A DNA stretch of 63,520 nt, filler included, from Collodictyon triciliatum (lineage: Eukaryota), in the NCBI GenBank assembly GCA_043381765.1. It is 4 parts of 4 records of this genome, joined end to end, with 100 filler letters (N's around TTAATTAATTAA, not from the genome) between each part and the next. Parts side by side here need not be neighbours in the genome. Positions count along the whole stretch, not along the records: positions 22,349 to 44,454 come from JBHJMP010001157.1; 3 more parts are not named here. One strand, written 5' to 3'. The notes beneath the pieces are model-generated. The model had not been told where the DNA came from. It made no database searches and worked only from the letters and a program-made list of their open reading frames with translations. The position numbers were made by a program, and so were the translations under genes. The first letter of the stretch is position 1; each line of letters starts with the position of its first letter. This document shows positions 22,658-43,964 of this stretch, piece after piece.

Positions 22658-22785
22658 TTGTTATTTAGGGGCACTCAAAATGGCATGAATGTTGAGGGCC
22701 GAGGCAAATAGCCGTTAGGGCAGGGCAGGGCTAGGGCTCGGCGAGGGTTAGGGTGGAGCGGACAGGAGGGCCGGTGCCGACGGGG
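22658..22785 (+). repeat. Left copy of diverged ~130-bp inverted repeat
   Basis: 22658-22700 matches the reverse complement of 43600-43642 at 42/43 nt. Similarity continues through TTAGGGTGGAGCG..CAGGAGGGCCG.TGCCGA.GGGG. Confidence 0.9.
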
Positions 22786-22971
22786 CATAGATCGGCCAGA
22801 TTAGGAAAGAGATTGGGTAAAAGGTATGATACCTGAGCAAGTCCGGTAGGTTGGGCAGATTCTTTTTTATTTTATTTTTTTTTGAGAGGGTGGGTAAGGC
22901 GGAAAAAGGAGCGTGTCTGCATGGGTGGCTGAGGTGTTATTATAGGGCAAACGGTCACTGCCATTTTTGGT

Positions 22972-25900
22972 TTATTTATCATCTTTTTTAGTTTTTACAA
23001 AGGCGTAACCTTGGGAAGGACCTACTTTGCCAACATTATGAAATTGTTTATAGTCAAGCGGAGGTTGTTGAGCAAGTCGTGCTGATCTGCGAAGTTCTGT
23101 TAACTGGGATCGAGCTTCTTTTTGTAGAGATTTAGGCCGTCTTTCACGTATACGTGCCGGTGATTTTGATGGAGATGGTGCACGGGACGATGCGGCAGAA
23201 TTTGCTGAATCAGTAAACAATTGTCTTTGTGTATTGATAGTGTTACCTGCGTATACTTGTGACATTCTTGTAATATTGGGTGGAGAATTATCTGTGCTTA
23301 TACTACTAGGTGACGCGCGATTGAGAGGAGAAGGTGATAGACCTGAGTGCATAGGGTGTACACGATATTTACTTACAGAACTAGTTGGTGACGGGTTATA
23401 AGAAGCAACAGATGCTGACCTCGAATGTAATGGATGTCCTAAAACTTGCACTGGACTATTATGTACAGATTGCAGTCTGCTGGAAGGAGCAGATGGATTC
23501 ATTTGTATTTGGGCTTGTAAATCTATCATACGGCGTTGAAGATACGCATTTTCTTCAATTACAGCGTCATACTGCTGTTGAAGTGATTCAAATTTAGTAT
23601 GTACATGGTGATTGTCTGTTTGCAGTTTAGACATATCTGAGATTATTGTTTGTACTCTGGATTCACGAACTATATTTTGCTCATTGATTTTCTGTATTCT
23701 ATTAGTGAGTTCTTGTATTTGTTCCTTAAGATGAGTATTTTCGTTACGTGTAGCTGCCAAGCTACCATTGGCAAAGTCTTCAAGTTCTATTGCTCTTTGT
23801 TGAGCATCCATATCCTGTTGCTTTAAGATGTCTAACTGTATTACTGTTTCGTTGTAAAGCTGAGTTATATTAGACAGTTTATGATCCAGAGCTGTTTTAT
23901 CTGCGATAGTCGCTTGAACGCTGTGAGTAAGATTATTATTGACTAATTGTAATGCATTGACTTTGTTTGTTAAATCTGTGTTTTGTGCTTCTATATCACG
24001 TACGTGTTGTTGTAATTGAGCGTGATCACGTTGTAATGTAGTGTGTCGGCTTCCATCTGACACAATTTTATCTTCAAAGTATGTTAATGCAGAATTTCGT
24101 CTGTTAAGTTCATTTGTGAGAGTGTCTATTTTTTGCTTTGTTTCTTGTAATTGACTCTCTAATCTTGCGTTGGTTGTCGCCATGACGGTCACAGCATTGC
24201 TTGGAACATTTAATTGTAATTTCAATTTGACAATTTCTTCTTGTAATTCTTCATTACGTTCTTGAAGTTCGAGATTTTGATCCTCATATGCAACACGTGT
24301 TGCTTCTGCACGTTCACTAATTTGTTGTTCTTTTGTAATTTGAGCTTTGTAATACCCTTCTAGTCTATTTCGCAGTGAATCGAATTGAGCTTGTGTATAA
24401 GTTTGCTCTTGTTGATTAGGAGGCACAAACTGTCTTTGAGATGATTCTAGGGTATGAATCTTTTGTTGCAAAGATTCTATGATATTTTGTTGTTTTTTAT
24501 TGCTAGCTTGCAATTGGCCTAATTCTATTTTATATTGCATGCGTGCTTGATTTAACTGTTGTTTCTGTTCTTCCAATTTGGGAGCATATACTGAGTGTAA
24601 TGTGTCTGTAACTTCATTTCTGCGTGTCTCAAATTGTTGTATCTGATCTTTTAATTCTGCCTCATGCTGTTGCCGAATAGTGCTAATTTGATTTTTTAAT
24701 GCTTGTATTTCCGTATTGAAAGCCTTTTGTATGCTGATAATGTGGTCATTTCGTTGTTGTAGTTCAGATTGTAAGGCATTAGATAAATTGCTATTTGCGT
24801 TGCCTTGTTGTGTTACTTCTACAACTGATTGTCGCAGTCGTTCATTTTCGGACTGTAATTGTACTATTGATTGATACTGCTGGCCAGTAAAATTTTTGAA
24901 ATTGCTATTTTCTTGGCGTAATTCTTCAAGAGTATTTTGATAAAATGTTGATTGTGCAATATTTGATGCTACAGCAGTTTCTAATTCTTGTTTTAAACGT
25001 CTGATTTCAGCTGTTCTATTTTTTGTATGTGACTCAACTGGCTCTGTAGGTAAGTAAATTTGTTTTCGTGTTTGATCATTTCGTAATTTGTCTAATTCTT
25101 TTTGCAATTCTTCATTGGCTTGTTTTAATTCACGTGCTTCCTTAATTACTTCAGTTTGTTGGTCAAGTGGGACACTGTCTTGCGCATTTTGTCGTATTTC
25201 TGCCAATTTTACTTCATATTGAGCTTTGTTCTGGTCAATTTCGCGTTGTTTTTCGTCTACTTTCTTTTGCAAATTGGCGATGTCTTGTTGAAAAACTGAT
25301 GTCATTTTATCGGTTTCTCCTCTTATTTGATCAAATTTTTTTACCCATTCAGCTGTTGCTTTTCTGACTTCTTCTTCTACTTCTTTTTTCATTTTTTCTT
25401 GAGCACTAGTTAGTTTATTTCTGAATGTATCTGTTGTTTGTTTTACAATTGCAGCTTTTCTTTCGTGCATTTCGTTAAACATTGATTGTTGCCCAGCCTT
25501 AAATTGCTTTTCATGTTCTGCTTTCATTTGTTGTTGTGTTGTTTGCTGCTGTAATTTTGCTGCTGCAATTTCATTTTCGTACCTCCTTTGTTCTTGCTGC
25601 TGTGTATGCATTATTTCCAAAAGTTGTTCTTTGACTTGAGACAACCCGGAGACCATATCGATTCTTTTCTGGTCTAATTGCTGGCCAAAGTTTAGTTTAC
25701 CTGTTAATATTTGAAGTCTTTCATGTACAGATCGTCTTAATTCATCAATGGTCATCTGTCCATGTTGGATAATTTGATTTTGTTCCTCATCTTCCAAAGC
25801 ATCAAAATATTGATCGCCATCGGAATCTTCTGTAGGTGCTTGAGATACAGGGGTCGCAGTTGGTCTTTTTATAATACTTCTTAATGTCGGTGTTGTTGAT

Positions 25901-28575
25901 GGCGGTAATATTTTTTTTGCAGTTTGTATTAATAACTGAAGTTCTTGCGGGGGTGGAATAATTTCAAACCCTTGCTCATCATAATGTTTCTGTTTTTTTG
26001 GAGTTGTGGTTGCAGCAGATGGCGTGGTTGGCTGTAATATGGATTTGGGTGTTTCGTCTACAAATTGTATTGATTTCAAAGGCGATGGATTTTTGAGACT
26101 TATATTAATTTGTTTTACAGGTGTCTTTTGTTTAGACGTTGATTTTCTTTCTGATTTTGGAGAGATTGGGCGATTGGTATTAGTTTGCACAGGTGTATTG
26201 GGTTGTGTTGCTAATTTTTTGGATTTTGGTGTAGAAGTGACTGAATTAGTTTGTGTACGAGACGCAGTCTGTCGACTTTTTAGTTCATTTAGAGTGGCTT
26301 GTAATTGTATAATTTGTTGTTGTTCAGATGCTAACTTTGTTCTTAAATTTTCAGTTTCAATTTGATTTTTATCATATTCTTGCTGAGCTTCACTCAATTT
26401 TTTTTCGTAATCTTGTTGCATAACCCTTATAGCAGATAAATTTGTACTATGATCGTTTTGTTTAGCTGACATAGTTCGTTCTAAATCAGCAATAATAATT
26501 TTATGAGCTTCCAATTCTTGAGATAAAGCATCAGTATTATGTTTGTTTGCCAGAAAATCTTGACGCATTTTCTCTTCTCGTTGAGCATACTCTCTTTCTA
26601 ATGTTGCAATTTGGGTAGTTTTTTCTCTTTCCATTTCATTTTTAATTTTTCCGACCTCTGATCGATATTGACGTTCAAGTTCTTGTTTTTTCTCTTCAAC
26701 TGTCAACAATAACTCTTGCTTTTCTTCTTGTAATTTTTGAATGATCATTGCATTATTTGAATTTAATTGGGTATGACCTAATACATCAGTATGTGTCCTT
26801 CTCTCTAGAAAGTCAAATTTTTCTTGCATTTGACGATTTAATTCTCGCTGTTGTAGTATTTCTGTATAGCCTGTTTGGACCTCTTTTTTCTTTATATCAA
26901 AATCCAATTCCAACTGCTTGTGTTGTCTTGTAACTTCACTTAATCTGGCATTTTGTTCTGCTAGTTGTCGCTCAAAATTTGCATTTTGTTGTCGAAGTTG
27001 GACATTTTGCTGTTGAGTTTGATTATAACTTGACTGCGCGTCTCGCATATTATTTTCCATATGATTGATATGTTCTAATAAAGGTTCGCGTGCTTCTGCG
27101 AGAAGATTTCTTACATATTGTTTTTTTTTTGTTAAATTTTGTGGATTTTCAGGATCATAACCTTCTAAAATTCGTTGGTTCTGTTCTTTAAAATCATCAG
27201 GAAAACTCGAATCCGAATCATCCGAATCACTAGAATCGGCTGATTCATTACCACGGTCAGCCAATATATCATCATCAGACACATTTGAATTATTTTGGTC
27301 ATCTTGATTTTGTGATGGGTTGGGATCATCATGTTGTGCATATGATTGGTCTAATAGATCTGCAACGTTTTCTAATCGAGTTTGTGAGTTTGCTGGTACG
27401 ACTGGTTCTACAGGTCTAAAATTAAATGCAAGAGGATCGGTCTGCATATCTGTATCACGATAGGTTCTAAATTGCATACTTTCTGAAGGCAAAGGCATAT
27501 ATACTGGCTGGGTGTCTCCCAAATCATTTATTATTGGTGAAATTATTGTAGGTTCGGAATTCCTCCGGCGATTTTGTTGTCTAGTTGTAGTGGGCGGCGC
27601 TATAGGCCTATTAACTTGATTTTGTGGAGGCGTGCTCATTTGACGTGGTAAATTTAGCTGATTTATTTGGCCAACAAATGCTTGCGATGCGTTGTCTGGG
27701 TCTTCAGGATCAATATTGCCTCTTGTAACTGCTTCAATATCAACAGCACAGTCGATCATTAAGTCTTGCGCATACAGCCATATGACAAATTCAAATTCTT
27801 CAACAGTGCTGAGTTTTAAATTAAGTGCATTTTCTGGATTTAATTGATATTTTTTTGCACCCAATAAAACTTTATATTTATTCTGCCATTCTTTAATTTT
27901 GTTAAAAACATTGTTTTCTACAAAATATTTGTAATAAATTTTTAATTGATATATTGTCTGAGGGCCTTTAAATTGAAGTTTTGTAAGATATTTAATTACT
28001 AACATGTGTCTGTCGTATATTCTCATAATTTCTTTGTCGACTCCTTTAACTAAATGTGCATAGTTGGGCCGTAACAATTTTGCCGATGTTTGGTGATTAT
28101 CTTCTGGGTCATTTAATTCTGTCTCATCTCGCTGTTGCATTTGTTGTTTAGCTATTTCTGTTTGTTGTTCATTTAATCCTAGTCTTTGACAAGTTTCTTC
28201 CGCAACATTCATTTTATTTTGTTCTGTAATATAACCAGTTGCCCAATGTAAAAATTGTGCATGTTTTAATCGTTGTTGCGCTTGTGCACTAGCTGCACCT
28301 TTAATGTCTTTTTCGGTATCTTTCGTATCTTTATATTCTTCTGAGTAATACATGCGTTCTGTGTCATTTCGAGCATTGTAATGTTTTAGCAGTTGCTGTT
28401 GCTTTTGGTTTTTTAACTCTAATAATTTACTGTTAATTTCTGGTAAGACGTTTCCATAGCCAGGAAAATAAGTTTCGCTAAATTCCAGGCCGGTAGGATT
28501 AATTAAGTGATGTCTTTTGATAGTGCCACCTGGTGGATCTTTAAATCTGTCTCTGATTTTAGTTAACGTAGACAT
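22972..28575 (-). CDS. 1867-aa long coiled-coil protein of the viral element
   Basis: Uninterrupted ORF with a globular-looking N-terminal ~300 aa, two long Q/E/K/L heptad regions separated by a P/T/S/K linker, and an S/P/R-rich C-terminus. Confidence 0.9.
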   Translation of the reverse strand: MSTLTKIRDRFKDPPGGTIKRHHLINPTGLEFSETYFPGYGNVLPEINSKLLELKNQKQQQLLKHYNARNDTERMYYSEEYKDTKDTEKDIKGAASAQAQQRLKHAQFLHWATGYITEQNKMNVAEETCQRLGLNEQQTEIAKQQMQQRDETELNDPEDNHQTSAKLLRPNYAHLVKGVDKEIMRIYDRHMLVIKYLTKLQFKGPQTIYQLKIYYKYFVENNVFNKIKEWQNKYKVLLGAKKYQLNPENALNLKLSTVEEFEFVIWLYAQDLMIDCAVDIEAVTRGNIDPEDPDNASQAFVGQINQLNLPRQMSTPPQNQVNRPIAPPTTTRQQNRRRNSEPTIISPIINDLGDTQPVYMPLPSESMQFRTYRDTDMQTDPLAFNFRPVEPVVPANSQTRLENVADLLDQSYAQHDDPNPSQNQDDQNNSNVSDDDILADRGNESADSSDSDDSDSSFPDDFKEQNQRILEGYDPENPQNLTKKKQYVRNLLAEAREPLLEHINHMENNMRDAQSSYNQTQQQNVQLRQQNANFERQLAEQNARLSEVTRQHKQLELDFDIKKKEVQTGYTEILQQRELNRQMQEKFDFLERRTHTDVLGHTQLNSNNAMIIQKLQEEKQELLLTVEEKKQELERQYRSEVGKIKNEMEREKTTQIATLEREYAQREEKMRQDFLANKHNTDALSQELEAHKIIIADLERTMSAKQNDHSTNLSAIRVMQQDYEKKLSEAQQEYDKNQIETENLRTKLASEQQQIIQLQATLNELKSRQTASRTQTNSVTSTPKSKKLATQPNTPVQTNTNRPISPKSERKSTSKQKTPVKQINISLKNPSPLKSIQFVDETPKSILQPTTPSAATTTPKKQKHYDEQGFEIIPPPQELQLLIQTAKKILPPSTTPTLRSIIKRPTATPVSQAPTEDSDGDQYFDALEDEEQNQIIQHGQMTIDELRRSVHERLQILTGKLNFGQQLDQKRIDMVSGLSQVKEQLLEIMHTQQQEQRRYENEIAAAKLQQQTTQQQMKAEHEKQFKAGQQSMFNEMHERKAAIVKQTTDTFRNKLTSAQEKMKKEVEEEVRKATAEWVKKFDQIRGETDKMTSVFQQDIANLQKKVDEKQREIDQNKAQYEVKLAEIRQNAQDSVPLDQQTEVIKEARELKQANEELQKELDKLRNDQTRKQIYLPTEPVESHTKNRTAEIRRLKQELETAVASNIAQSTFYQNTLEELRQENSNFKNFTGQQYQSIVQLQSENERLRQSVVEVTQQGNANSNLSNALQSELQQRNDHIISIQKAFNTEIQALKNQISTIRQQHEAELKDQIQQFETRRNEVTDTLHSVYAPKLEEQKQQLNQARMQYKIELGQLQASNKKQQNIIESLQQKIHTLESSQRQFVPPNQQEQTYTQAQFDSLRNRLEGYYKAQITKEQQISERAEATRVAYEDQNLELQERNEELQEEIVKLKLQLNVPSNAVTVMATTNARLESQLQETKQKIDTLTNELNRRNSALTYFEDKIVSDGSRHTTLQRDHAQLQQHVRDIEAQNTDLTNKVNALQLVNNNLTHSVQATIADKTALDHKLSNITQLYNETVIQLDILKQQDMDAQQRAIELEDFANGSLAATRNENTHLKEQIQELTNRIQKINEQNIVRESRVQTIISDMSKLQTDNHHVHTKFESLQQQYDAVIEENAYLQRRMIDLQAQIQMNPSAPSSRLQSVHNSPVQVLGHPLHSRSASVASYNPSPTSSVSKYRVHPMHSGLSPSPLNRASPSSISTDNSPPNITRMSQVYAGNTINTQRQLFTDSANSAASSRAPSPSKSPARIRERRPKSLQKEARSQLTELRRSARLAQQPPLDYKQFHNVGKVGPSQGYAFVKTKKDDK

Positions 28576-28807
28576 TATATGTGTATAATTTACTCTAAGA
28601 ATTTTTTATACGCTTGTCGATGCATCTAATCTAAAAGACTCGCTAGATTGCGTATTTTCAATGTTTACGCCAAAACACGAAGATTTTTTTATGTGTTTGA
28701 ACATGCGTTCAAAGATAAGAGCAATGTTAAGAATGAGGCTGGCAATGGTGATGGGTTCCATGATATCGATTTATTATTGATTAAGAATATTGTGAGACAC
28801 AGTAATT

Positions 28808-29737
28808 TTAAGATGGCTGTTCTAGCAATTTTCGATCATTTAAAATATCAGAAACAATCGTTTTTGATAGTTCCTTGTCATATTTCTTGAGCTTTTTAGT
28901 CCTTTCTTTCTTTTCTTCCTTAAAATTTGTTTTTTGTTTCACTGCACGAGGTTTTCTAGCAGGTGTTTTTGTTTTCATCGGCTGGTAAGGCCTGACAACA
29001 AAATCTGCTGTTTTGCCGCTGCCATTCATAAAATTCAACGCAAATTGTTCCTCGTCACTGTTCTGCATGTGCTTAAATGAAACGCAACTTTTGTCAATTT
29101 CGCCAGCATGGGATGCAATAAATTCGCTCAGTTGCGTTCTCAACGTTCTCAAACTTGCCTCACGATGATCCACAATAAAAGAATTACCAGCAAAATCGAG
29201 AGGAATCTGGATCTCAAATTTAGGACTCGGAGAAGGTTTTTCGTCTGCGTTCTCATCATGTAGTACCGGGTCGAACAAATACGCTTTTTCATTGCTCTCG
29301 GTCATATCTGGCCATGCATATTGATACCTATCGTCAAGAGCATTTAGTGTGCCGCCAAATCGCGTCAATTGATGCGGATCCGGGGCAAGGATGGGTTTCT
29401 GTTCCATACTAAATTTTTTTACAATCTCCTCATACAGAGACAGGGCGTCTTTTTTTTCTTTTTCTTCAGACTTTTGATTGTTGATCATGCAGACAAGAAA
29501 CGTCAAGAGACACGCCATGTCTTTAAACGATCCTTGGCGGACGCCATAAATCGACACGCCGTAACACTTGGGGCTCAACTCGCCAGTATATTGACACAAA
29601 TACAGGCTTTTTCCGTGCACATTTGTCGCTCGGGGTTTACGAAGGTGCGACAATCTCGCATTCGGCAGGGGGCAATATCCGTCGGCAACTTTCATTCTGT
29701 GTGTATGAACAATAAAAAGATAAACTGTGATACCCAT
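28808..29737 (-). CDS. VLTF2-like (poxvirus A1-type) late transcription factor
   Basis: GSFKDMACLLTF and ILAPDPHQLTRFGGTL resemble the NCLDV VLTF2 motifs G.FCS..C...(Y/F) and PAP....L..FGG.L. An alternative ATG lies at 29695. Confidence 0.6.
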   Translation of the reverse strand: MGITVYLFIVHTHRMKVADGYCPLPNARLSHLRKPRATNVHGKSLYLCQYTGELSPKCYGVSIYGVRQGSFKDMACLLTFLVCMINNQKSEEKEKKDALSLYEEIVKKFSMEQKPILAPDPHQLTRFGGTLNALDDRYQYAWPDMTESNEKAYLFDPVLHDENADEKPSPSPKFEIQIPLDFAGNSFIVDHREASLRTLRTQLSEFIASHAGEIDKSCVSFKHMQNSDEEQFALNFMNGSGKTADFVVRPYQPMKTKTPARKPRAVKQKTNFKEEKKERTKKLKKYDKELSKTIVSDILNDRKLLEQPS

Positions 29738-29765
29738 AATCTTTTATTAGAGATATCATAGAGGG

Positions 29766-29776
29766 CTATATATATA
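29766..29776. promoter_or_regulatory. TATA-like box between divergent genes
   Basis: CTATATATATA lies between the VLTF2-like gene (-) and the penton-like gene (+). Confidence 0.4.
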
Positions 29777-29835
29777 ACCTGACACTATGTGAAATAACGA
29801 CCAGGACGACGTCCTGTATCAAAAGGCATACTAAG

Positions 29836-29948
29836 GTAATTTTCAAATTATATAATTATATACTAACAACAATTATTATATCATATTACATATTATTCAT
29901 CAATAATCATATCACATGTATAATTTAATACTAACCTTTTTTTTCTAG
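29836..29948 (+). other. Putative spliceosomal intron (113 nt)
   Basis: AAG|GTAATT donor, TACTAAC at 29861 and 29929, T-tract and CTAG acceptor. The next ATG is at 29953. Confidence 0.65.
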
Positions 29949-29952
29949 TCAA

Positions 29953-30921
29953 ATGTTATCAAAAAATTGATATCACGCGTAAATATCTTCTGTTTTGTCC
30001 AGGACTGTTTGGTAAACACCCTGGAAGTGAAACAATTGTTACAGAATATACAAGCACCGGCGCACGACAAATAACTGAAAAAACGAACAATAGGGAAGTG
30101 CTGGGACAGTTAAATTGCCCGAGCCTTGTCGTAATATTCTGGCTATTAATTGTGTTGATTTTTCACTCATAAATGCCAGTCTTGCTATTGTTTTGCCAGA
30201 AATCGCACCTTATGGAAGCTGGGACTATTTACCATTCATGGACCCACAAAATTTGTTGCGTTATCACACAATTCTGGCAATTTTGCATTAAAGATGGGAC
30301 CGTCAGAATTGCCTCGTGAATTTGATAAAAATTGGTTTCCAGTGTTGTCACCTATGCAAAACACAACAACTGGGCAAAATCGTAATCCTATCGCTGTAGC
30401 TTCAAGGAAAAAAAGATCAACCACCTTTTCATTTGCATCAGTTAACAGCAATGAATTATATTTTACAAAATAACCAGAATCTAGCTGAACTAAGCTCGTC
30501 AAGCGGAAATACAACAGCTGCCACAGCAAGCACAAGTACTGGTAAACAAACAAGATTTACATGGTTTGACACAAGTTTGCGCATGACAACAGGTGGATCG
30601 ACATATGAAACAGTTAATGGCCCGTCGCCTCCCTTGCAAAACATGTTTATATGTTTGGAGGTTGTAATGCTAGACGAAAGTCCCCACATCGCCAGAAATC
30701 CCACTGCTCGAGGCGAGGTTGAGGCAAATGAAAATGAATTTGAAGTACACAATAGACGTCAGGGACATCCCTGCCTGGGCACATAGCTATTGGTTTCCAC
30801 CAATTAATCCAAAAAAAAGAAAAACCTGATGGTATGAAATTTACATTTCACTTAAGACAACGATTTGGTGAACCGTATCGTCCAATTGTGTTTCGTGTTC
30901 TGTGGACTTTTTATTGTTTGA
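29953..30921 (+). pseudogene. Frameshift-interrupted minor capsid (penton)-like gene
   Basis: Pieces in different frames: KLPEPCRNILAINCVDFSLINA, RFTWFDTSLR...GSTYE...NMFICLEV, and KFTFHLRQRFGEPY..IVFRVLWTF*. These resemble single-jelly-roll minor capsid motifs of PLV/NCLDV type. Confidence 0.45.
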
Positions 30922-31757: not shown

Positions 31758-31830
31758 CTACAAAAAAAGCTAAAAAAATATGAATTCTAAACCAAAATAA
31801 ACTAACCAAACCCAAAAAAAACATAGGAAA

Positions 31831-33727
31831 ATGGCAGACGAACCTGAGCCAACGTTATATGACGACGATGATCTACAAGAACTGACAAATGAAGACTGGG
31901 AGATGCTACTCCCGCCCTGCGAAAAAAGGCTTTTTGATAACATCGATCACGACCCTGCAAATTACATACCACACGACGAATTATTTAACCGTGAAAAAGC
32001 AAAACAATTGTTTATAGACGAAATGTCTGAAACAACAACAGCTACTCAGTGTTTTACATACATGTCTCAATTTTTTTGTGCTATAAATTTTTGTAATAGT
32101 ACAAAGAAAACAATCATATTATACTTGACAAAAACACCCACCGAATGCAGCACCCAAGAATGTCCATTATTTACTAATGAAATCCAAAAAATTCCCATGA
32201 CCCAGATTAATACTCAATTTAATGATATGAAAGTGTATGTAAACATCAAAGTAGTCAAAGGCGACAAAGAAACCAGAAAACCAAAAAAATTTACATCTTT
32301 GATGAATTTATGAATTCTTCGCATTTTGTCCGATATGATAAATCGTGTTTTGACCCACCTAATTTACTGGGAGCACCTGTTGAGTTTTTTGGGCGACACT
32401 ACAATACATATACTGGATTGCCTATCGATGAATATCAGATTTCCAAAGTATTTGCCGCCTATGTATTGGAGAGCGATTATGATTACAGATTGCATCCTAG
32501 CTTGTGCTCCATTTTGAATCACATAAAAGAAGTTTTATGTAACAACCATGAAGAAATATATAATTATTTTATTAACTGGTTGGCTTACATTTTTCAAAAC
32601 GCTGGCAGAAAAACTCAGGTGATGGTCATTTTTGTTGGATCGTCTGGCTGTGGCAAATCGACACTGTTTAACTGGTTAAGGCCATTGTTTGGACATTACA
32701 TGGAATCAAAAAAAACATCCGAGTTAGGACAGCAATTTATAGGGCATGAATTTAATGAAAGATTTTTAGTTACAATCGATGAATGGAACATTAGAGAGCT
32801 ACACAATAGCCACGCTGATGGGTTGTTAAAAAATCTAGTCACCGATACAACCATCCGTGTTGAAGCAAAATTTGTGCAAGGATACAGTGCAACTTCTCAC
32901 AATAATTTTCTTGCTTCTTCGAATTATGCCGTCAATTTGGTACCTTCTTCGCTGGGATATTTCCGCCGCATGCTTATTGTCAACTGCGGTGAGACAAGAG
33001 GACCTGAATATTTTAAAACTTTGCATCAAACGGTAGGACATCCAACATTTAACAAACATCGGTACAGTCTATCCATGCACATGTTTGCTAAATTTTTGTT
33101 AGATCGAGATTTAAGCGAATATGTTCCTACTGAGTTTCCTATCACAGAGTTTCAAGTAAATTGCTTGACCAATGGATGGAGAAAGTGTTACAAATGGTGG
33201 TATATTGTATTGAAAAGAGGATATATTATAGACAAATCGTACTTGCATGATAAAAAAATGGTTGAAAATATGAATTCCGAACATTGTAAACAATTTCATG
33301 AATTTACGCCAGAAAATGAAGATTTTAAAACATTTTACACTAAAAAAACCACGGGCTACGCAAACAATGGATATATGACCAATACACGACTGATATGGTT
33401 GATATTTTCAATATGGACACAAAAAGCACAAAACACAACAAAAACGCTTTTTTTACGGAACTTGGACATATAATAAAATACCACGAATATTCATTTGACG
33501 GATATTGCAATATGATTTCTTTTCCATCACAAAGCGAATGCATTCGAGGCTTTTACTTGGCGCACATGGCATCTGGCCTAAAAATACACGACAATCCATT
33601 CAGACTGAATTTAGGACCCGATAACATATATCAATATGTCCTTGACATGATAAATGGTGTCATCCCTCCTACTCCAAGCTCGACTGCAGAAGAACACGAG
33701 GGTTTGATCCCAACACCTAAGGAATAA
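31831..33727 (+). CDS. SF3/D5-like helicase (DUF5906-type), split into three ORFs by two -1 shifts
   Basis: YFINWLAYIFQ, Walker A GSSGCGKST, Walker B LVTIDE, motif B' IRVEAKF, motif C ASSN, arginine finger FRR. The ORFs join at A7 runs 32283-32289 and 33342-33348. Confidence 0.85.
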
Positions 33728-34816: not shown

Positions 34817-34854
34817 GTCTATTTATATGTAAAATTAGGAAATAATTTAGTTAT

Positions 34855-35607: not shown

Positions 35608-35680
35608 TCTAAAATGTATTATATAAAAAAAGAAAGAAAAAATTCTAATTTATAAAATAACTTTGAGATTGATTATATAA

Positions 35681-36109: not shown

Positions 36110-37109
36110 TTATTCGTACAGTGCATCTGGCAGCATCCCAGCAAGTGACAACGAGCTTGCATCCTTCACAGAAGAGGGCCATTCACAAGTAATGGAATCG
36201 TTACAAAACATGGATCTAAACAGTGCAAGCAAACAATCTATTCCGTCTCGTCGCAAAAAAACTGTGCCGAAACGTGTGCCAAAACCTATAGGTAAGCGTG
36301 TTGAATTTGACAAAAGTGACGATGTCGAAAGCACAGACTCTGGAATATTCAAACTGCCCCCACTAGAACAAGAAGCAACAGAACCGATTGAAATCGTGAG
36401 GCCTACAACACCCGAACCCAAGCCCCAAGAAGAAGTTTTTTCGTTTTTCAAGAGTTCCAGTCCGTGGAATTATTTCGGTAACGCATTTTCATCGCAATCT
36501 TCCTATCCACCTGCCCATCGAGACAACGATACTGAGAGTGTCAAATCAACAACCAGCAATGATGACAAACCAAAATCATCTAAAAGCAAGAAAAAAAGCG
36601 AGGTCGTGGATGAAACCGATAAAGACGAAGAAGAGGCCAAAAAGAGACAGCTTTTGCATCAAATTGGTCGATATCGAGAAAAGTTTAGCATCAAACTTCG
36701 AAAGCAGCCTACAGATAGAATGTCGGTAAAAGAGCTTGAAGAATTAAAAAAACAAACTATTAGTCAAATTACTGAAAAAGAAGGTTCACGCATTCTAAAA
36801 TCGTTTTATTGTCATGGTCTAACAGCCATCGATCAAGTATCCACAACCATGGGATATGACCATCTTAGAGGACTGGGACAGGTAGGAACTGCAATTGCAA
36901 ATGACGAAGAAAATGAAATTCTTTGGGAACAGTTGGCAATTGAATTTGAAGAATATCTACATGTATCCCCGCAAAAGCGACTGATTTTGTTGACTGCGCA
37001 GATTCTTGCCACTACAGTCCGCATCAATTCCGACCCGCAGTTTGCTGCCAACATAGCACAAGAAATGGGCCAGGCTGAAGAAAGACTTCGCAAGGAATTC
37101 GCCGAATAA
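36102..37109 (+). CDS. Conserved NCLDV-type protein (DUF5767-like)
   Basis: Disordered acidic/Ser N-terminus. LRGLG, ILWEQLAIEF and VSPQKRLILL..ILATTVRIN resemble the 'L.G...FEEL.EKY....PE.RL' signature (recognised by eye). Confidence 0.55.
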   Translation: MTSYSYSASGSIPASDNELASFTEEGHSQVMESLQNMDLNSASKQSIPSRRKKTVPKRVPKPIGKRVEFDKSDDVESTDSGIFKLPPLEQEATEPIEIVRPTTPEPKPQEEVFSFFKSSSPWNYFGNAFSSQSSYPPAHRDNDTESVKSTTSNDDKPKSSKSKKKSEVVDETDKDEEEAKKRQLLHQIGRYREKFSIKLRKQPTDRMSVKELEELKKQTISQITEKEGSRILKSFYCHGLTAIDQVSTTMGYDHLRGLGQVGTAIANDEENEILWEQLAIEFEEYLHVSPQKRLILLTAQILATTVRINSDPQFAANIAQEMGQAEERLRKEFAE

Positions 37110-37133
37110 TTCGTTTTATTATAAAAAATAAAC

Positions 37134-37517
37134 TCAAAATATTTGATGAAACATTTCTGCTGTGAAATCTATTGTAATATCTCTGTACATTGCCACCGTA
37201 AAAAATATAATCGGACCATGTACTTGAAATGAATCATTGTTTGTCATATTCCAGCTTTTTTTGATGATATTTGTTGCGATTGTATTCTGATCGCCATTAG
37301 TTCCGAATACTGCAAACAATCTCAAATCTTGATTATTTACATAAATATTATCAACATGAATTGAAGTTGTATGCCCAATAGATGGATAGACATGGGCCAA
37401 ATACTCGTTTATTACGTCTGTTGGATTGTCTGATGGATATTCTATATATAATTTTCTTGTCGTGACATCAAACTCGTCGCCGTACAAAACTACCACGGTA
37501 ATATAATTATTTTCCAT
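37134..37517 (-). CDS. Hypothetical viral protein (127 aa)
   Basis: Clean ATG ORF. Confidence 0.7.
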   Translation of the reverse strand: MENNYITVVVLYGDEFDVTTRKLYIEYPSDNPTDVINEYLAHVYPSIGHTTSIHVDNIYVNNQDLRLFAVFGTNGDQNTIATNIIKKSWNMTNNDSFQVHGPIIFFTVAMYRDITIDFTAEMFHQIF

Positions 37518-37590
37518 TTCTAAATTATACTATTTTTGATCTTGATAGAGTGCCTAGAATTTACAGCACCTTCGAGTGATATCTTTGGTT

Positions 37591-38300
37591 ATGGAGGAAG
37601 ACATATTGCAATGTAAATATTGTTCTAAATTCGACGTATATTTAAATTTCGAGGGCTATGAATACGTATGTCATTCGTGCGGGAGCGTTCATGCTGTGGC
37701 TATTGGCTGTAGCGCTCATGAATATTTTAAAGATAATTACAATTGGTCTATGGGCAATTTCTACCAAGCAAAGTTTCACTTTAATGAGAGGATGTCTCAA
37801 TGGTGCTGCAACGAGCCTCTCATACCGGATCCTGATGTTAAAATTATTATGGATGCCTGTGCAAAATACGAAAAAGACGGAAAATCAGTCGACTCTAAGC
37901 GAGATATTCAGCGAATACTCCGATCTCTAGGTAGAAAATTCAGCAAAAAATACCTAGAAAAGTGGCTGTCCATACTTCGCAAATACAACAAAAAAATATA
38001 TTTTCCGTGTCCCTCCAATCGTTTAGTGGATTGTTTGAGGTCAAATTTTAATTGTGTTTTGGGTCCGTTTGAAAATAGCAAACCAAAAAATCGCAAACAC
38101 TTGCCCAATTACAACTACATCATACGACAATTATTGTACATAATCGATCCAGAGCTAGACACGATATATTCTTTTTGTTTTCCTTTATTACAAAGCAAAA
38201 AAAAGTTGAAAATTTAGACGAGTTGTGGTTGCCAGTGTGTCAATACAATGGTTGGGAATACAGACAAATGTCAAAAATGAACACAAGCGAGCTATCATAA
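37591..38300 (+). CDS. VLTF3-like (poxvirus A2-type) late transcription factor; C-terminus continues after a -1 shift
   Basis: Zn ribbon CKYC..VCHSCG, Y...FHFNERMSQW, RKHLPNYNYIIRQLL, FPLLQS. The -1 frame after the A8 run (38197-38204) gives VENLDELWLPVCQYNGWEY, matching the family D..W..(I/V)C....W end. Confidence 0.85.
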
Positions 38301-38344
38301 ATAAATAATTCTAATAAATACATAAACAAGAATTACACATCACA

Positions 38345-38530
38345 ATGACTATCCGCACTGAATCTGATTATGGTCTTGATCTGGCTGTTGTGGCTATTGC
38401 TACTTACATCGTAACAGATGATTTCAGAGCCACTGCCCTGCTAACTGTTGTGCATGGACTTGTCCACTACGTTGGATATTCAATGTCCAAACGCTCTAGT
38501 GAAGAAAGTCGTGTTGCTGCTTCGTACTAA
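38345..38530 (+). CDS. Small hydrophobic (two-helix) protein
   Basis: 61 aa with two hydrophobic stretches, followed by AATAAA. Confidence 0.65.
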   Translation: MTIRTESDYGLDLAVVAIATYIVTDDFRATALLTVVHGLVHYVGYSMSKRSSEESRVAASY

Positions 38531-38536
38531 ATAAAA

Positions 38537-39541
38537 CTACTCGTCTTCAATATTATCCATCAAGGTGAAAGATCTTCTGTCTAATTTGTGCATTCTGCTC
38601 TTATCAAAAACGATTTCTCGCTTCATTTCAACTTCTTTTTGCTTCTTGATGTAATGCACATCCCAATATTCTTTACACCCCAGTTTGAACCCTTTTGGGG
38701 GCTCAATGGCTTTCGTGTAAAAAACACATTTTTCTGGATCTGTGGAATTGACAGATAAATTGATAACAAGACAGTGGTTGTCTCTGGTGTAATAATCAAT
38801 AATTGCATCTGCATAATCTGGATGTAGATAAGCCATGTACTGATCGCGAATGTGTTCTCTTTCTCTTTTTGATATCTGTGTAAAAACAAACGCATAATCA
38901 AGATTTGCTCTCATTTTTGGCGTAATCAGTGTTGGATATTGTGTAGTCACAACCAGATGAATTTTGAAATGCCTTCCTGCAATAAACAGTTTTAGAAGCG
39001 TATCACTATATCTGACACCAGAATCTGCCACGGCGTCGTCAAGCATGATTCCACACCAAGGATTGCGGTGTTCGACTGCAGGATTTGTCAAATAAAATTT
39101 TTGTCTATTAATAATCCTTTGTATGAAAAACGAATCAAATTCTTCGTGAATGTATTCTTCCGGAATAATATCTTCCCACGATTTGTTGAGTTTTGCTGTT
39201 GGTGAAATAACCCAAAAAACAGGAATTTGACTCTTGATGTGATCTTGGCTCCATAGATATTTTGTCATGAACGTTTTTCCTGTTCTTCTTTTGCCATACA
39301 GTGCGATTGTGCTGTCAATCTGAATGCCTTTAAAATCAAATAACGCAGGTTTAAAACACATCAGTCTTGCCAATTTGTCTTCCAAAATCAACAAAACATC
39401 AGCGTTAGGATTTATGCTCTCACCGTCGTCTTCATAACTGCGTTTTCTTTTAGTTTCGTTTTCATTTTCTTTCGGTTTTTTTGCAGGTTTGCTGCTTTTG
39501 ACATTTAACGCTTTTGAAATTTCGCTCGAAATTGATGTCAT
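38537..39541 (-). CDS. A32-like (FtsK/HerA) genome-packaging ATPase
   Basis: Walker A GKRRTGKT, Walker B IMLDD, then LFIAGRHFKI, TTQYP and RANLDY. Confidence 0.93.
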   Translation of the reverse strand: MTSISSEISKALNVKSSKPAKKPKENENETKRKRSYEDDGESINPNADVLLILEDKLARLMCFKPALFDFKGIQIDSTIALYGKRRTGKTFMTKYLWSQDHIKSQIPVFWVISPTAKLNKSWEDIIPEEYIHEEFDSFFIQRIINRQKFYLTNPAVEHRNPWCGIMLDDAVADSGVRYSDTLLKLFIAGRHFKIHLVVTTQYPTLITPKMRANLDYAFVFTQISKREREHIRDQYMAYLHPDYADAIIDYYTRDNHCLVINLSVNSTDPEKCVFYTKAIEPPKGFKLGCKEYWDVHYIKKQKEVEMKREIVFDKSRMHKLDRRSFTLMDNIEDE

Positions 39542-39554
39542 GCAATTATATTTA

Positions 39555-39845
39555 TTATTTCATTAGAAATGATAGGTGCGCAATTGGCGAGGACGTCGTC
39601 GATGTCCTAGTGCTTGTGGTTTTTGGCGCTGATTTTACATTCGATTGGCTTTTTGTTCTTTTTACACATTTTGCCTCTTGTTGAGTAGCTGGAGCCGGGG
39701 CAGTCGCTTGGCGAGATTTAACAGCCTGTTGATATGAGGGGGTCAGTCCCACTGGCGATGTCATAGGCCTTGGGCTCATCATGCCATTTTCGACGCTTAC
39801 AAACCTGCCATTTTGTGATCGAGTTGTTGGTTTCCTACCAGACAT
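39555..39845 (-). CDS. Small basic S/T-rich protein
   Basis: 96-aa ATG ORF filling the gap. Confidence 0.65.
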   Translation of the reverse strand: MSGRKPTTRSQNGRFVSVENGMMSPRPMTSPVGLTPSYQQAVKSRQATAPAPATQQEAKCVKRTKSQSNVKSAPKTTSTRTSTTSSPIAHLSFLMK

Positions 39846-39876
39846 TTTTATCTAATTAATTGCTATATTAGAAATA

Positions 39877-40107
39877 ATGGGAAACAAACTACAAAAAGAC
39901 GCATCGTTCAAACACGCGGGGGCTCAACCGAAGCCTGTGAATATGTCCAAATCTCCTTTTATCACAAAGCCAAATTTTGGCTACCAAGAAGACGACTATG
40001 CACAGAAAAAGTTAAACACGCCAGACAAGGTGCACGGTCATTTTATGAAACTGCGTATTGACGATCAGACAAGAGCCATGCTGCACAGAAAAAGCATTCG
40101 CAAATAA
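39877..40107 (+). CDS. Small protein with possible N-myristoylation (MGNKLQK)
   Basis: 76-aa ATG ORF followed by AATAAA. Confidence 0.65.
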   Translation: MGNKLQKDASFKHAGAQPKPVNMSKSPFITKPNFGYQEDDYAQKKLNTPDKVHGHFMKLRIDDQTRAMLHRKSIRK

Positions 40108-40114
40108 ATAAAAA

Positions 40115-42406
40115 TTAAGCAAATCTATGTTGAAAATCCCAATGTTTCTGTATAGCTGCTCGTGTTAAATCGCTGTCGTGTCTTTGTGGGTACTCGTATC
40201 CAACATGAAATCCTTCTACATTTAGATGATCGATACTCCATATAATCTTGTTTTGTAACAAACTTAACAATATCATTTTTCTTGCCATTGCTGTGGATGG
40301 TCTTTTTCCATCCATGGGATAATATTTTTTGGGATCCAAATTTAATGCAGCCGTGTAAGCGTTCATCATGACATTTACCCCACATTCTGTATCGTTGTCC
40401 TGACGATACAAAGAATCGTGCATATCAATATGTTCATATTGTTTCCAATTATCGAAATATTTATCTGTACCGAAATGCCTTTTGCATTCTGATTGAAAGT
40501 AAAATCCTAACTGTCTAACAGCGAGAGTGCTAGCACTCACAGTACGATTAAAATCTTCTGTATCGACAGGTTCCAAATTGTCATAATATCGCAATTGCTT
40601 GTTTTCGTTGTCAATCACAAACAATGTCCAGTGATTTCCATTTATATGACACGGTATAAAGACCTTTTTGTATGCAAAAATGTTTGTTTTTAGTGTAATA
40701 TTATGCATCATTTCAGGACAAAAAGGACGATTGCTTTTTGCTTTCATTAACATATAAAAAAATGCCGTGTTAAATGTAAAACACATGGGAGTCATGTAAT
40801 TTGTTTGCGATTCGTCCGAGTACATTTTTTGGCAAATTAATATCAAAAATGCAGTAATCACATTTCCGTCAATCCAATTATAATTTAATAGCGTGCTTGC
40901 ATCTTCGTATGTTAAAACTGCTTGTTGTCGATCAAACTGATATGCCAATACCGGAGGATCTTCTTTAGTTGACTTTTTCTTCCACGATTGCATATATTGG
41001 TTCAATTTTTTTATGTGCTCGGCAGATAATTTGCCAAACACACACATCTTATCGTCCCAGTTCGGATTGCCGCGTTGATTGGTGTCTACATATTTCATTT
41101 CATATGTAAATTTACTTGGCTGCTGACCTGGTTTTAACAATTGATTACGTAAATAATGATCGGCCCAAAACCAGCTTGTAGTATAATATATATTATGCCA
41201 AAATTCTTTTTTATCTTGTTCAAAATCTTCTTCCTCGTCCTTACTTTTGACTATATCTTCATTTACATCTTTTGATGTGTCCAATTCATCGGCGAACACC
41301 TCTTCCACGTCACTCTCTGCTGGGCCAACATCAGGTTCATTTTCATCAGCCATTTCCGCATCAGTTGTTTCTTCGACCTCTGTTAGGTCATCTTCGGCTT
41401 CTATATGCACGTACGGCTCCGCACTTGCTTCCGATTGTTCTGTTTCTTCATCTGGTTCTTCAGGCGCAAAACTTACACTGTTTCGTGATTGAATTTCTTG
41501 ATCAGATTCTTCACTTGACGAAGATATTTCGTATATGCTCGCCCGTGACATATTGCTTGGCGTGCTGATTGCGCTAAATGAGGTATTTCGAGATGACGTA
41601 TTTACATTATCAAATCCATGCGAGTCTAAGCTACTGTCCATTTTAGATGATTTTTTCTTTGTATTAAATCGCGACCGCGTTCGCCCGTCATCAGGAATCA
41701 CGTCTTCTTGATGTCTGTACACACGGCGCGGCACCGTATTTTTCATTGTCTCCTTCACAGCAATTCTTGTGCCATAATTTCCGCGTTTGCTTCCTTCCGG
41801 CTTGTAATCAGCATAAATTTCTACTGGTTTATCTTTACTAGCATATATATTTTTATCTGCTACAACATATGCCGCTTTTGGATTCCTTGAACGCGACGAC
41901 ACAGCAAAATGTGCATTTTCATGCGAATTTTTTGAATGCTGCACGTATCGGCCCACATCGGTGTCAGTTTTTCTGGCATCAATGAATTTCCCATTCGGCA
42001 ATTTTATCAAATATTTGCCTTGTTTGTGATCATACCGTTGATCTTTTTGGCTTTTTGTCAGAATTTCTCCAGTGTATGGAGCAATAACTTCTCCTTCTTT
42101 AACATTTTCCGTTACATACAGCCCTTTTGGATCATGTTTGTGCACGTGGCTGTCTTTCACGCGCAATCCATACTGTTCTTGCAAATGCACCCAGCAAAAT
42201 GGAAAAGTAGACACACACTTTTGACCGCACCTCTTCCCATTCTGGTTCACCGCTTTACAGCTGTTGCCTTTATTGGGCTTCAGAGGCTGCCTGCTGTCGT
42301 TTACATCAGTGGCCGGTTCCGATATGTGTTGCAAATCAAACAGCGCTTTGTTATGATGGTGGCTCCTTCTTTTCAATTTGTTATACACTGACAACATTTT
42401 TATCAT
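40115..42406 (-). CDS. Zn finger - SET domain - acidic linker - Ulp1/SENP (C48) cysteine protease fusion
   Basis: Zn finger C.A....G.RC...C.....FCWVH. SET motifs KGLYV, PYTGE, IDA, GRYVQHS and EIYADY. C48 motifs NWIDGNVI, FNTAFF, IPCHINGNHWTL, YYD and QDNDTECG. Confidence 0.88.
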   Translation of the reverse strand: MIKMLSVYNKLKRRSHHHNKALFDLQHISEPATDVNDSRQPLKPNKGNSCKAVNQNGKRCGQKCVSTFPFCWVHLQEQYGLRVKDSHVHKHDPKGLYVTENVKEGEVIAPYTGEILTKSQKDQRYDHKQGKYLIKLPNGKFIDARKTDTDVGRYVQHSKNSHENAHFAVSSRSRNPKAAYVVADKNIYASKDKPVEIYADYKPEGSKRGNYGTRIAVKETMKNTVPRRVYRHQEDVIPDDGRTRSRFNTKKKSSKMDSSLDSHGFDNVNTSSRNTSFSAISTPSNMSRASIYEISSSSEESDQEIQSRNSVSFAPEEPDEETEQSEASAEPYVHIEAEDDLTEVEETTDAEMADENEPDVGPAESDVEEVFADELDTSKDVNEDIVKSKDEEEDFEQDKKEFWHNIYYTTSWFWADHYLRNQLLKPGQQPSKFTYEMKYVDTNQRGNPNWDDKMCVFGKLSAEHIKKLNQYMQSWKKKSTKEDPPVLAYQFDRQQAVLTYEDASTLLNYNWIDGNVITAFLILICQKMYSDESQTNYMTPMCFTFNTAFFYMLMKAKSNRPFCPEMMHNITLKTNIFAYKKVFIPCHINGNHWTLFVIDNENKQLRYYDNLEPVDTEDFNRTVSASTLAVRQLGFYFQSECKRHFGTDKYFDNWKQYEHIDMHDSLYRQDNDTECGVNVMMNAYTAALNLDPKKYYPMDGKRPSTAMARKMILLSLLQNKIIWSIDHLNVEGFHVGYEYPQRHDSDLTRAAIQKHWDFQHRFA

Positions 42407-42479
42407 ATGTCTAGATTTTTATTAACACTACATATGCACCCGATTAATACAAAAAGCTTTTTATTTATAGATATATTAT

Positions 42480-43469
42480 TTATGAAGAACCACCAAATAA
42501 ATTTGCTGGTCGTTGTGGAGAGACAGTTCTTCCAACATTATATGGTTGTGCATACCTTACATTGTATCCTCCCTGTCCTGAAAGTGTTGGCCCGTTTTGT
42601 CCCGCAGGTTGGAGGGGACTAAAAGGGTTTGTAGTTGTATTATTATGAACACGTGCAGATACATTCATAGTACGGTTCGGATTATCTGAGATATTCACAG
42701 AATTATTTGCAGACAAAGCTCCTGTCCTAATAGGTTCACGTCTAATTCCTTGCATCATCTGCTTAAATGTTGACTCATTGATGTTACCTCCAGTGGGCGC
42801 TGTGAATTGAGAATGATGCAGTGGATCTGTTGCACTAGCTAATTTCTGTGTCGGTTTGATATAATCATCAAAGAATCTAGGAGCAAACATCCCCTTAATG
42901 TATTGACGATTTCTCACGTCTACATGTTGTTGCATAGGCTCCATGAAATTTGTATTATACAACGCTGGTTCTATGCGTCCTGTAGCCATTGCATATGCCG
43001 TTAGCACATCTTCCTGGTTTCGTATGCCCATCAAATTCATTCTAGCAATTTTTTTCTGAAAATCAAGCGACTCGTCAATAGCTTTTATTCTTCGGTCAAA
43101 CCATCCCGGGTTAATTTCGCGCGACAATTTAAGTTGCGCTGGGTCGCGGTGATCAAAAATCGTTGCATACCAAGCATCAAAATTGCGCATTTCTTGTTGT
43201 TTCGCCTTGTCATACAAATAATCAACTGTTCCTTCGTCAAGATTTCTCTGACCCCATGTTTGTTGATCCAAGGATAATTTTAACGCCATTTTCGATTCTT
43301 TGTCAATGTCGCGATTGTCTTCGAATTTTGCCGGATAATACGCATCTTGGGCTCTCAATTCTTGCGTTTCTAGATCTACCGGATCGATATGGCCAAGAGT
43401 CTGGACGGGTGCTGACCCTTCCACCTCTTTTCGGCTCATTGTCTTTCCCAATGATTTATATGAATTCAT
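42480..43469 (-). CDS. Hypothetical viral protein (329 aa from ATG 43469)
   Basis: Long ORF with a helical core and an N/P/G-rich tail. The ORF-track TTG start runs into the repeat. Confidence 0.8.
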   Translation of the reverse strand: MNSYKSLGKTMSRKEVEGSAPVQTLGHIDPVDLETQELRAQDAYYPAKFEDNRDIDKESKMALKLSLDQQTWGQRNLDEGTVDYLYDKAKQQEMRNFDAWYATIFDHRDPAQLKLSREINPGWFDRRIKAIDESLDFQKKIARMNLMGIRNQEDVLTAYAMATGRIEPALYNTNFMEPMQQHVDVRNRQYIKGMFAPRFFDDYIKPTQKLASATDPLHHSQFTAPTGGNINESTFKQMMQGIRREPIRTGALSANNSVNISDNPNRTMNVSARVHNNTTTNPFSPLQPAGQNGPTLSGQGGYNVRYAQPYNVGRTVSPQRPANLFGGSS

Positions 43470-43513
43470 TGTAATTAACTTAATTAAATCAAAATTAGAA
43501 ATTTTATACTTTA

Positions 43514-43642
43514 CCCCATCGGCACGGCCCTCCTGCGCGCTCCACCCTAAATCCTTGCCCAACCCTAGCTTACGCCCTGTCTTACCGGCTACTCACGCAG
43601 GCCCTCAACATTCATGCCATATTGAGTGCCCCTAAATAACAA
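43514..43642 (-). repeat. Right copy of diverged ~130-bp inverted repeat
   Basis: Its reverse complement aligns to 22658-22785. Confidence 0.9.
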
Positions 43643-43932: not shown

Positions 43933-43964
43933 ACTTTAGTTTATATAATTTTCTTGGCCATAAT

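Follow-up and report, generated by a model that had tools for sequence, protein, structure and literature searches.

The DNA analyzed here is a stretch of 63,520 bases from Collodictyon triciliatum (assembly GCA_043381765.1), referred to below as the window, in which separate contigs are chained by spacers and do not form one molecule. Two diverged inverted repeats, both located on the contig at 22349–44454 (22,106 bp), bound a unit of 20,985 bp (22658–43642) that contains all of the recognizable viral genes. The outer 43 nt of the two repeats are nearly identical, conservation drops steeply past this tip, the outer edge is sharp, and the homology of a neighboring gene breaks at that edge. The repeats are interpreted as imperfect terminal inverted repeats (TIRs) of an integrated 20,985-bp element, either polinton-like or resembling a dwarf nucleocytoplasmic large DNA virus (NCLDV), with the 43-nt tip as the end-recognition site. 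We consider the chances of this interpretation to be about even. It rests on four features, namely the sharp outer edge, the position of the best-conserved sequence at the tip, the location of all recognized viral genes between the repeats, and the gene cut at the edge.

Inverted repeats and conserved tips

The left repeat, IR-L, is located at 22658–22785 (128 nt, GC 0.62) with its G-rich strand as the plus strand, and the right repeat, IR-R, at 43514–43642 (129 nt, GC 0.57) with its G-rich strand as the minus strand. When each arm was compared with the whole window using blastn, the sole match was the partner arm, with 82.3% identity over 130 nt and an E value of 5.6e-30. A repeat search returned the pair 22658–22726/43574–43642 (69 nt, 86%). 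An initial inspection of the letters without database searches (the sequence-only reading) had described these two intervals as inverted copies that are not identical TIRs; its coordinates were exact and the identity of 82.3% agrees with that description. The same reading placed the copies in sub-terminal positions. Both are indeed near the contig ends, but these "ends" are assembly breaks, 309 and 812 nt away. Relative to the interior of the unit, with a GC content of 0.367, both arms are GC islands.

The left tip (22658–22700, plus strand) consists of 12 nt (TTGTTATTTAGG) followed by a 12-7-12 imperfect palindrome at 22670–22700 with the spacer GGCATGA. The right tip (43600–43642, minus strand; palindrome at 43600–43630) is identical to the left tip at 42 of 43 positions, in agreement with the single base difference counted earlier, and the longest identical runs between the two tips are 21 nt. 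The one substitution, A to T, changes an A·G mismatch to T·G on the G-rich strand. Outside of the tip the arms are 75% identical. The outer 43 nt hold 1 difference versus 22 in the other 88 alignment columns (Fisher p 0.001), and the earlier proposal that the core is under constraint is upheld. A second conserved block of 26 nt (92%) is found at 22748–22773 on the plus strand, with its partner at 43525–43550. A search for the 31-nt core pattern that tolerated up to 3 mismatches gave 2 occurrences in the 63,520 bases and 0 in 100 shuffles.

The similarity ends abruptly at 22658 and at 43642, and matches between the sequences just outside and just inside the arms are at the level of chance (9/40 and 10/40). 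Conservation that peaks in the outermost 43 nt and then stops abruptly is what the termini of an element would be expected to show. Discrete ends on both sides of each copy, a GC content of 0.57–0.62 versus 0.37, the interruption of a gene by one copy, and an identity of 82%, which fits diverged family members, would be compatible with two independent insertions of a GC-rich mobile element of ~130 nt, similar to a miniature inverted-repeat transposable element or a palindromic element, that bracket the viral genes by coincidence. This explanation is judged to be very unlikely. The homology of the interrupted gene is not resumed past the inner edge of IR-R, and the 63.5-kb window holds 2 copies with none in its other contigs. 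Searches of a viral contig collection for exact patterns provided 0 matches each for the core and the second block, and also for a back-translated peptide adjacent to the edge. The mirror placement of the copies near both contig ends, with the tips outward, would also have to be a coincidence.

A canonical G-quadruplex motif, (G3N1–7)×4, is found in IR-L at 22718–22736 (plus strand) and is the sole one of the whole contig. The right arm is without it, and a G-quadruplex was therefore ruled out as a shared feature of the repeats. A telomere-like identity for the repeats was also ruled out, because the G-rich strand runs 5'–3' inward.

The palindrome of 31 nt has 10 of 12 Watson–Crick pairs in both copies. 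The predicted DNA hairpins have ΔG values of –6.9 and –7.3 kcal/mol, with z scores of –2.05 and –2.56. Palindromes of equal quality (arms of 12 nt with 10 or more pairs, a loop of 3–9) numbered 19 on the contig, whereas in 30 shuffles the mean was 8.3 and the highest count 18. Such palindromes are thus frequent here, and chance could account for the hairpin by itself, but not for its conservation in both copies. The conserved hairpin put forward in the sequence-only reading is thus present and kept in both copies, but it is weak and no better than chance palindromes.

It had also been proposed that the arms are small RNA genes, and two diverged paralogues of a structured RNA on opposite strands would account for GC-rich islands in an AT-rich genome that are followed on the G-rich strand by T-runs (77 nt past the left repeat and about 20–35 nt past the right) and, for IR-L, preceded by TATA-like repeats. 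The results make this proposal extremely unlikely. Rfam provided 0 matches on the arms at E ≤ 1, 0 tRNAs were returned by a tRNA scan, and the whole-arm folds are no better than those of shuffled sequences (z of –1.80, –0.42, –0.83, and –0.04). Only 1 compensatory pair was detected among 28 predicted pairs and 1 among 24, most pairs being invariant, although two sequences provide little power for covariation. Small RNA genes would also leave the break in homology at the edge of the repeat unexplained.

Junction at the right edge

An open reading frame (ORF) of 106 aa (43612–43932, minus strand) meets IR-R from the outside. The repeat overlaps its final 31 nt and its TGA stop codon is located in the hairpin loop, as the sequence-only reading had noted. 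No homologue was obtained in a homologous-protein search covering sizes of 58–186 aa. When 1.84 billion representatives were searched exhaustively without a profile, a single match was obtained: P0016, a protein of 1340 aa, with an E value of 2.7e-19. Residues 3–97 of the ORF are homologous to the N-terminus of P0016, and the ORF is a truncated gene. Residues 2–98 of P0016 align to 43926–43639 of the window, with an identity of about one third over the first ~55 residues followed by 39/40 over residues 57–96.

The similarity to P0016 is lost at codon 97 (GA|T), which corresponds to 43642|43643, the last base of the codon being the first base of the repeat. Residues 99–1340 of P0016 match nothing in the 63.5-kb window, and the homology is not resumed past the inner edge of IR-R, where the next gene, which is unrelated, starts 44 nt on. 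The repeat alignment and the protein homology are independent measures that end at the same base, and 43642|43643 is therefore a discrete junction. Because the near-identity to P0016 reaches this boundary, the junction appears to be younger than the divergence of the arms. The gene of the 106-aa ORF does not include the repeat, since its homology to P0016 ends where the repeat begins. For the same reason, the left copy is not a decayed duplicate of the gene end at 43612–43932, a counter-explanation raised in the sequence-only reading. For annotation, caution is needed with the last 9 codons and the stop of this ORF, which are read from the repeat tip and lie outside of that gene family.

The 39/40 stretch of P0016 is a low-complexity linker, the reverse of the usual pattern for domains and linkers, and this mosaic identity suggests recent recombination or a chimeric metagenome contig. 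P0016 also aligns weakly (E 0.005) with the 1867-aa protein described below, over a coiled coil and a Ser/Pro-rich tail. GC3 is unusually low in the gene for the 1867-aa protein and in the 106-aa stump (0.22 and 0.16 versus 0.29–0.42 for the other genes). P0016 and the 1867-aa protein may be distant counterparts. An AlphaFold model of the C-terminal 243 residues of P0016, predicted from the single sequence, has a pLDDT of 37, which is too low for a fold search.

An assembly chimera, in which the contig was joined to unrelated DNA through short sequence shared at the repeat tips, would fit a fragmented assembly with contigs ending in low-complexity runs and a left flank that does not continue the cut gene. 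It is regarded as highly unlikely: the tips differ at one base, their identical runs of 21 nt are short for a mis-join, the flanks are unique within the window, and both junctions are exactly at the repeat edges.

Gene content and surrounding window

The contig at 22349–44454 is densely coding, and three of its proteins are recognized by Pfam. All of the genes recognized by Pfam or through relatives (helicase, VLTF3-like factor, protease, P-loop protein, and a 329-aa protein) lie between the repeats. The D5-like SF3 helicase is encoded at 32310–33473 (plus strand) and matches DUF5906 with 59 bits as well as primase-helicase PHROGs. The VLTF3-like transcription factor is encoded at 37576–38217 (plus strand) and matches Pox_VLTF3 with 24.6 bits (E 2.4e-5), just below the Pfam cut-off of 25. 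A 763-aa fusion of a SET domain (33.4 bits) with an Ulp1/adenain-like cysteine protease (47.8 bits) is encoded at 40115–42406 (minus strand); an acidic low-complexity stretch is located between the SET (lysine methyltransferase) domain and the protease.

The 334-aa P-loop protein (38537–39541, minus strand) is a putative packaging ATPase. It belongs to no Pfam family; a Walker A motif, recognized by visual inspection, and homologues on virus-like contigs are the basis for the assignment. There are 7 clusters of homologues at 58–99% identity, and relatives at 24–30% are found on virus-like metagenome contigs that also carry VLTF3, primase-helicases, and a weak capsid match. The 329-aa protein (42480–43469, minus strand), which is kept in distant relatives, starts 44 nt inside IR-R. 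At the other end of the unit, the 3' end of the gene for the 1867-aa coiled-coil protein (22972–28575, minus strand) is 187 nt inside IR-L. Neither the 309-aa nor the 250-aa protein had a usable match in the Protein Atlas.

Upstream of the helicase domain, the region at 29.9–32.3 kb contains at least six successive overlapping plus-strand frames, and none of the alternative genetic codes closes the fragmented region at 29.8–32.3 kb. The primase-helicases of relatives are 1000–1170 aa in length, and the region at 29.9–32.3 kb resembles the decayed remains of an N-terminal (primase) portion. For mriyaviruses, Yutin et al. (PMC11253617) describe frameshifts in the 5' portion of SF3_hel2 genes.

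An identical linker (44 N, TTAATTAATTAA, and 44 N) occurs three times in the window, at 22249–22348, 44455–44554, and 62400–62499, and has stops in all six frames. Most contigs of the window end in homopolymer or low-complexity runs. Long A/T "inverted repeats" that span the linkers (I1–I15) were discarded as artefacts of the linkers and the homopolymer contig ends. Long ORFs (150 aa or more) are few in the neighboring contigs, numbering 4 over 22.2 kb and 7 over 19 kb, and no informative Pfam domain was detected in these contigs, the only matches being sub-threshold TPR matches in 1 of 7 ORFs. One neighboring contig has nine tandem units of ~183 bp each at 19429–21054, followed at 21180–21474 by a GAT/GAC-rich, Asp-rich coding-like repeat with weak TPR matches (ORF 20981–21469). 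No similarity was found between the repeat-bearing contig and the other contigs of the window. By GC, GC3, and skew, the flanks of the repeats are not separable from the element or from the neighboring contigs. Parts of the left 10 kb occur in 14 sequencing runs, with a best share of 0.30 in a run labelled freshwater metagenome and 0.06 in one RNA run; nothing about habitat or expression is inferred from these shares.

Weighing of the interpretations and comparison with known systems

If the repeats are TIRs, the element would be inserted in other DNA and the 309 and 812 nt outside of the repeats would be flanking DNA. On the right side, the insertion or a rearrangement would have cut a gene whose intact form encodes ~1340 aa. 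The same tip is present at both ends in opposite orientation, and one protein could thus recognize both ends, probably as a dimer on the 12-7-12 palindrome. Recognition of the tip would lead to processing of the ends for integration/excision, for the initiation of replication, or for packaging. The inner GC-rich 85 nt would be free to drift, except for the second block of 26 nt. We infer that the element moves or once moved and that the tip is bound by a protein; it is the conservation of the tip that suggests a function for it. If correct, this interpretation would fix, to the base, both ends of a 21-kb member of the small NCLDV-like viruses, about which little is known, and would provide a defined 43-nt end sequence that could be tested as a protein-binding site. 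With a pair of ends, the way in which an element without a recognizable integrase, HUH endonuclease, or protein-primed polymerase replicates and enters other DNA would become a testable question.

Several results weigh against an inserted element. No target-site duplication (TSD) of 4–6 bp was found, either exact or with one mismatch, when the edges were shifted by –4 to +4 nt. The left edge is placed by the repeat alignment, with no second marker of its own. The left flank (22349–22657, 309 nt) has stops in all three minus-strand frames and shows no similarity to P0016, and the remainder of the cut gene is thus not found in it. The data therefore do not demonstrate a straightforward insertion into an intact gene; the event would have involved at least a deletion, or else some more complex rearrangement. 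An identity of 75% between the arms outside of the tip is unusual beside long intact ORFs (1867 aa). The gene in the right flank that encodes a 119-aa protein (43965–44324, plus strand) has a diversity similar to that of the P-loop protein, with 8 protein clusters at 50–97% identity versus 7 at 58–99%. Together with the truncated ORF, it forms a compact, virus-like divergent pair, and it could belong to the same virus as the element.

The failure to detect enzymes and structural proteins expected of such an element also weighs against this interpretation. Pfam scans of 18 + 17 ORFs and 42/116 stop-to-stop fragments of the 22-kb contig detected no integrase (rve), tyrosine or serine recombinase, transposase, or HUH/Rep family, and the 20,985-bp element has no recognizable integrase, HUH endonuclease, or protein-primed polymerase. 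A major capsid protein (MCP) was not detected between the repeats by Pfam, by tblastn with the capsid ORFs of relatives, or by phmmer, profiles for polinton-like viruses (PLVs) and mriyaviruses not being used; for a complete element this is odd. Mriya_48 was likewise not detected on the contig, again with mriyavirus profiles not used.

These scans also bear on the earlier suggestion that the two hairpins serve an HUH endonuclease as nick sites or origins, for rolling-circle or rolling-hairpin replication. The hairpin is conserved in both copies, and the mriyavirus report (PMC11253617) describes a SIRV1-like HUH endonuclease in all mriyaviruses and inverted terminal repeats (ITRs) in some. About half of one related group of 20–30 kb are described as encoding HUH (10.64898/2026.06.19.733378). 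No HUH/Rep family was detected in the scanned ORFs and fragments, however, and a regular expression for HUH...Yx2-3K matched only the SET-domain protein on the contig. The hairpin is no better than chance palindromes, and the contig is about half the size of a mriyavirus. Nick sites of this type are accordingly judged to be exceedingly improbable. The label of mriyavirus is not sustained for an element of 22 kb with no HUH endonuclease and no detectable MCP.

The repeats could instead be internal to a circular or longer virus genome, with the palindromes acting as paired sites of site-specific recombination, by which the small arc would be inverted or exchanged, or as origin/enhancer elements. 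We hold this to be possible, though unlikely. The large arc would be 20.7 kb, and the small arc, of at least 1.1 kb, would carry the 119-aa gene, the truncated ORF, and an AT-rich non-coding stretch. The range of lineages that keep the 119-aa gene is about as broad as that of the P-loop protein, and the genes of the flank are compact and intron-free, unlike the neighboring contigs. The inverted arms of 12 nt and an asymmetric spacer of 7 nt that is identical in both copies have the layout of tyrosine-recombinase sites, and neither a TSD nor an integrase was found. The right flank (43643–44454, 812 nt), which holds the divergent gene pair, ends at the contig break in a low-complexity run, (TTTTAAAA)n; this is an assembly break, so the molecule continues.

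Other observations oppose internal repeats. No recombinase gene was found, and the contig ends at 22349 and 44454 do not overlap with each other. The gene of the near relative, at 39/40 identity up to the edge, runs on, which makes the junction look recent, whereas the arms are old (25% diverged). The best-conserved part is located exactly at the edge of the similarity, a placement that the model does not require. Arms so diverged should not break assemblies, and yet the ~22-kb contigs of relatives are without the 119-aa gene. If the repeats were internal recombination or origin sites, they would have no described precedent among the cis elements of the group, as far as the literature was searched.

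The contigs of relatives bear on both interpretations. For the P-loop protein, 3 of the 7 homologue clusters are on contigs of 21,580, 22,290, and 33,206 bp, whereas for the 119-aa gene 7 of the 8 clusters are on contigs of 0.6–2.2 kb and 1 is on a contig of 11.6 kb (Mann–Whitney p 0.009). Because the clusters of the two genes are on contigs of different size, a unit of ~22 kb is usually not joined to the 119-aa gene in relatives, which indirectly favors TIRs of an inserted element. This contrast does not cleanly separate TIRs of an inserted element from internal repeats, since assemblers that break at inverted repeats would give the same split between short and long contigs. No related loci were found in the viral contig collection for the P-loop protein, the helicase, alignments A2 and A3, or P0016, nor in the genome contig collection for alignments A2 and A3. 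Among metagenome contigs, alignment A2 provided 11 loci, of which one is close (L001, 1.5 kb, 73%) and does not reach the repeat, the other 10 being at 24–30%. Eight metagenome loci, all partial records, were searched for a comparable inverted repeat; 0 pairs were found in 7 of them and one weak pair of 37 nt in L008.

Further features were noted in the flanks. In the left flank, two direct repeats of 18 nt (22473–22490 and 22511–22528, 17/18 identical) are located in a TATA-like, non-coding context and point toward IR-L. In the right flank, a third GC-rich island is found directly past the 119-aa gene at 44289–44410. It contains GTTGAGGCAAA, which is similar to the junction of the IR-L palindrome with the next bases, and the same 11-mer also occurs at 30718. 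An AlphaFold model of the 119-aa protein (9-row alignment) has a pLDDT of 53, too low for a fold search.

The sites of Flp/FRT, from the yeast 2-micron plasmid, and of Cre/loxP consist of inverted arms of ~12–13 bp around an asymmetric spacer of 7–8 bp. The 12-7-12 core with identical asymmetric spacers resembles these FRT/lox-type sites, which we take to be those of tyrosine recombinases. The likeness covers the inverted arms, the asymmetric and identical spacers, and the presence of inverted sites on one molecule; unlike in FRT/loxP, no encoded cognate recombinase was found here and the palindrome arms are imperfect (10/12). The inversion sites proposed in the sequence-only reading thus retain their layout, but no enzyme for them was found. 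Direct support was obtained for none of the three functions that this reading had put forward. One version of this proposal takes the 43-nt tips as lox/FRT-like sites of a small circular NCLDV-like virus without a recognizable recombinase, in which the 1-kb arc, made up of the 119-aa gene and a variable gene stump, could be inverted or swapped between genomes as a cassette. Such a swap would explain how the different gene body of the near relative is joined at exactly 43642/43643; we nevertheless think it quite unlikely.

The hr sequences of baculoviruses are repeat units with a conserved imperfect palindrome of 30 bp; they act as origins and enhancers and are found at rearrangement breakpoints. 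The repeats described here are similar in having an imperfect palindrome of ~30 nt within a diverged repeat unit, one copy of which is beside a breakpoint in gene content. They differ in that there are two copies only, mirror-placed at the ends of a block of genes, and no homologue of a known hr-binding protein.

Among viruses of comparable gene content, mriyaviruses are described as 35–45 kb in size, all with HUH (PMC11253617). The contig shares with mriyaviruses and with the 20–30-kb groups a VLTF3-like factor, an SF3 (D5-like) helicase with a degraded 5' region, and a putative packaging ATPase, and some members of those groups have ITRs. Of the features that characterize Mriyaviricetes, the combination of VLTF3 (24.6 bits, cut-off 25) with an SF3/SF2 helicase (DUF5906, 59 bits) was detected. 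In the 22,106-bp contig searched, neither the HUH endonuclease, the defining gene of mriyaviruses, nor a genome of 35–45 kb with an NCLDV-like MCP was found, the size here being 21–22 kb.

Endogenous PLVs, which occur as insertions in eukaryotic assemblies, have a mean length of 22.2 kb in one host and are recognized by TIRs of 100 bp to 8 kb, as described in PMC12220804, which also presents a complete element with an imperfect TIR pair of 186 and 207 nt at 89% identity and TSDs in 22–58% of elements, depending on the cluster. The unit described here differs from these PLVs in that no integrase (rve/tyrosine recombinase) or capsid gene was detected, the outer 43 nt are kept (42/43) with the rest at 75%, and the right neighbor is a compact, viral-looking gene pair and not obvious host sequence. 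As in endogenous PLVs, where a TSD is often absent, inverted repeats of at least 100 bp are present at both ends of an element of ~21–22 kb. Their lengths of 128 and 129 nt around 20,985 bp are within what is expected for PLVs of 14–40 kb, and at the right edge (43642|43643) the outer boundary of the repeat is a junction with unrelated DNA. The PLV morphogenesis module comprises an MCP, a minor capsid protein, a packaging ATPase, and a maturation protease; the unit has an Ulp1-like protease (47.8 bits) and a P-loop protein, and the Pfam, tblastn, and phmmer searches detected no MCP. For the NCLDV-like PLV groups of 20–30 kb, completeness is described as being judged by direct or terminal inverted repeats (10.64898/2026.06.19.733378). 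The contig fits these groups better than mriyaviruses proper, and imperfect repeats at the ends of a 21-kb element are nothing very unusual among small DNA viruses that reside in microbial eukaryote genomes.

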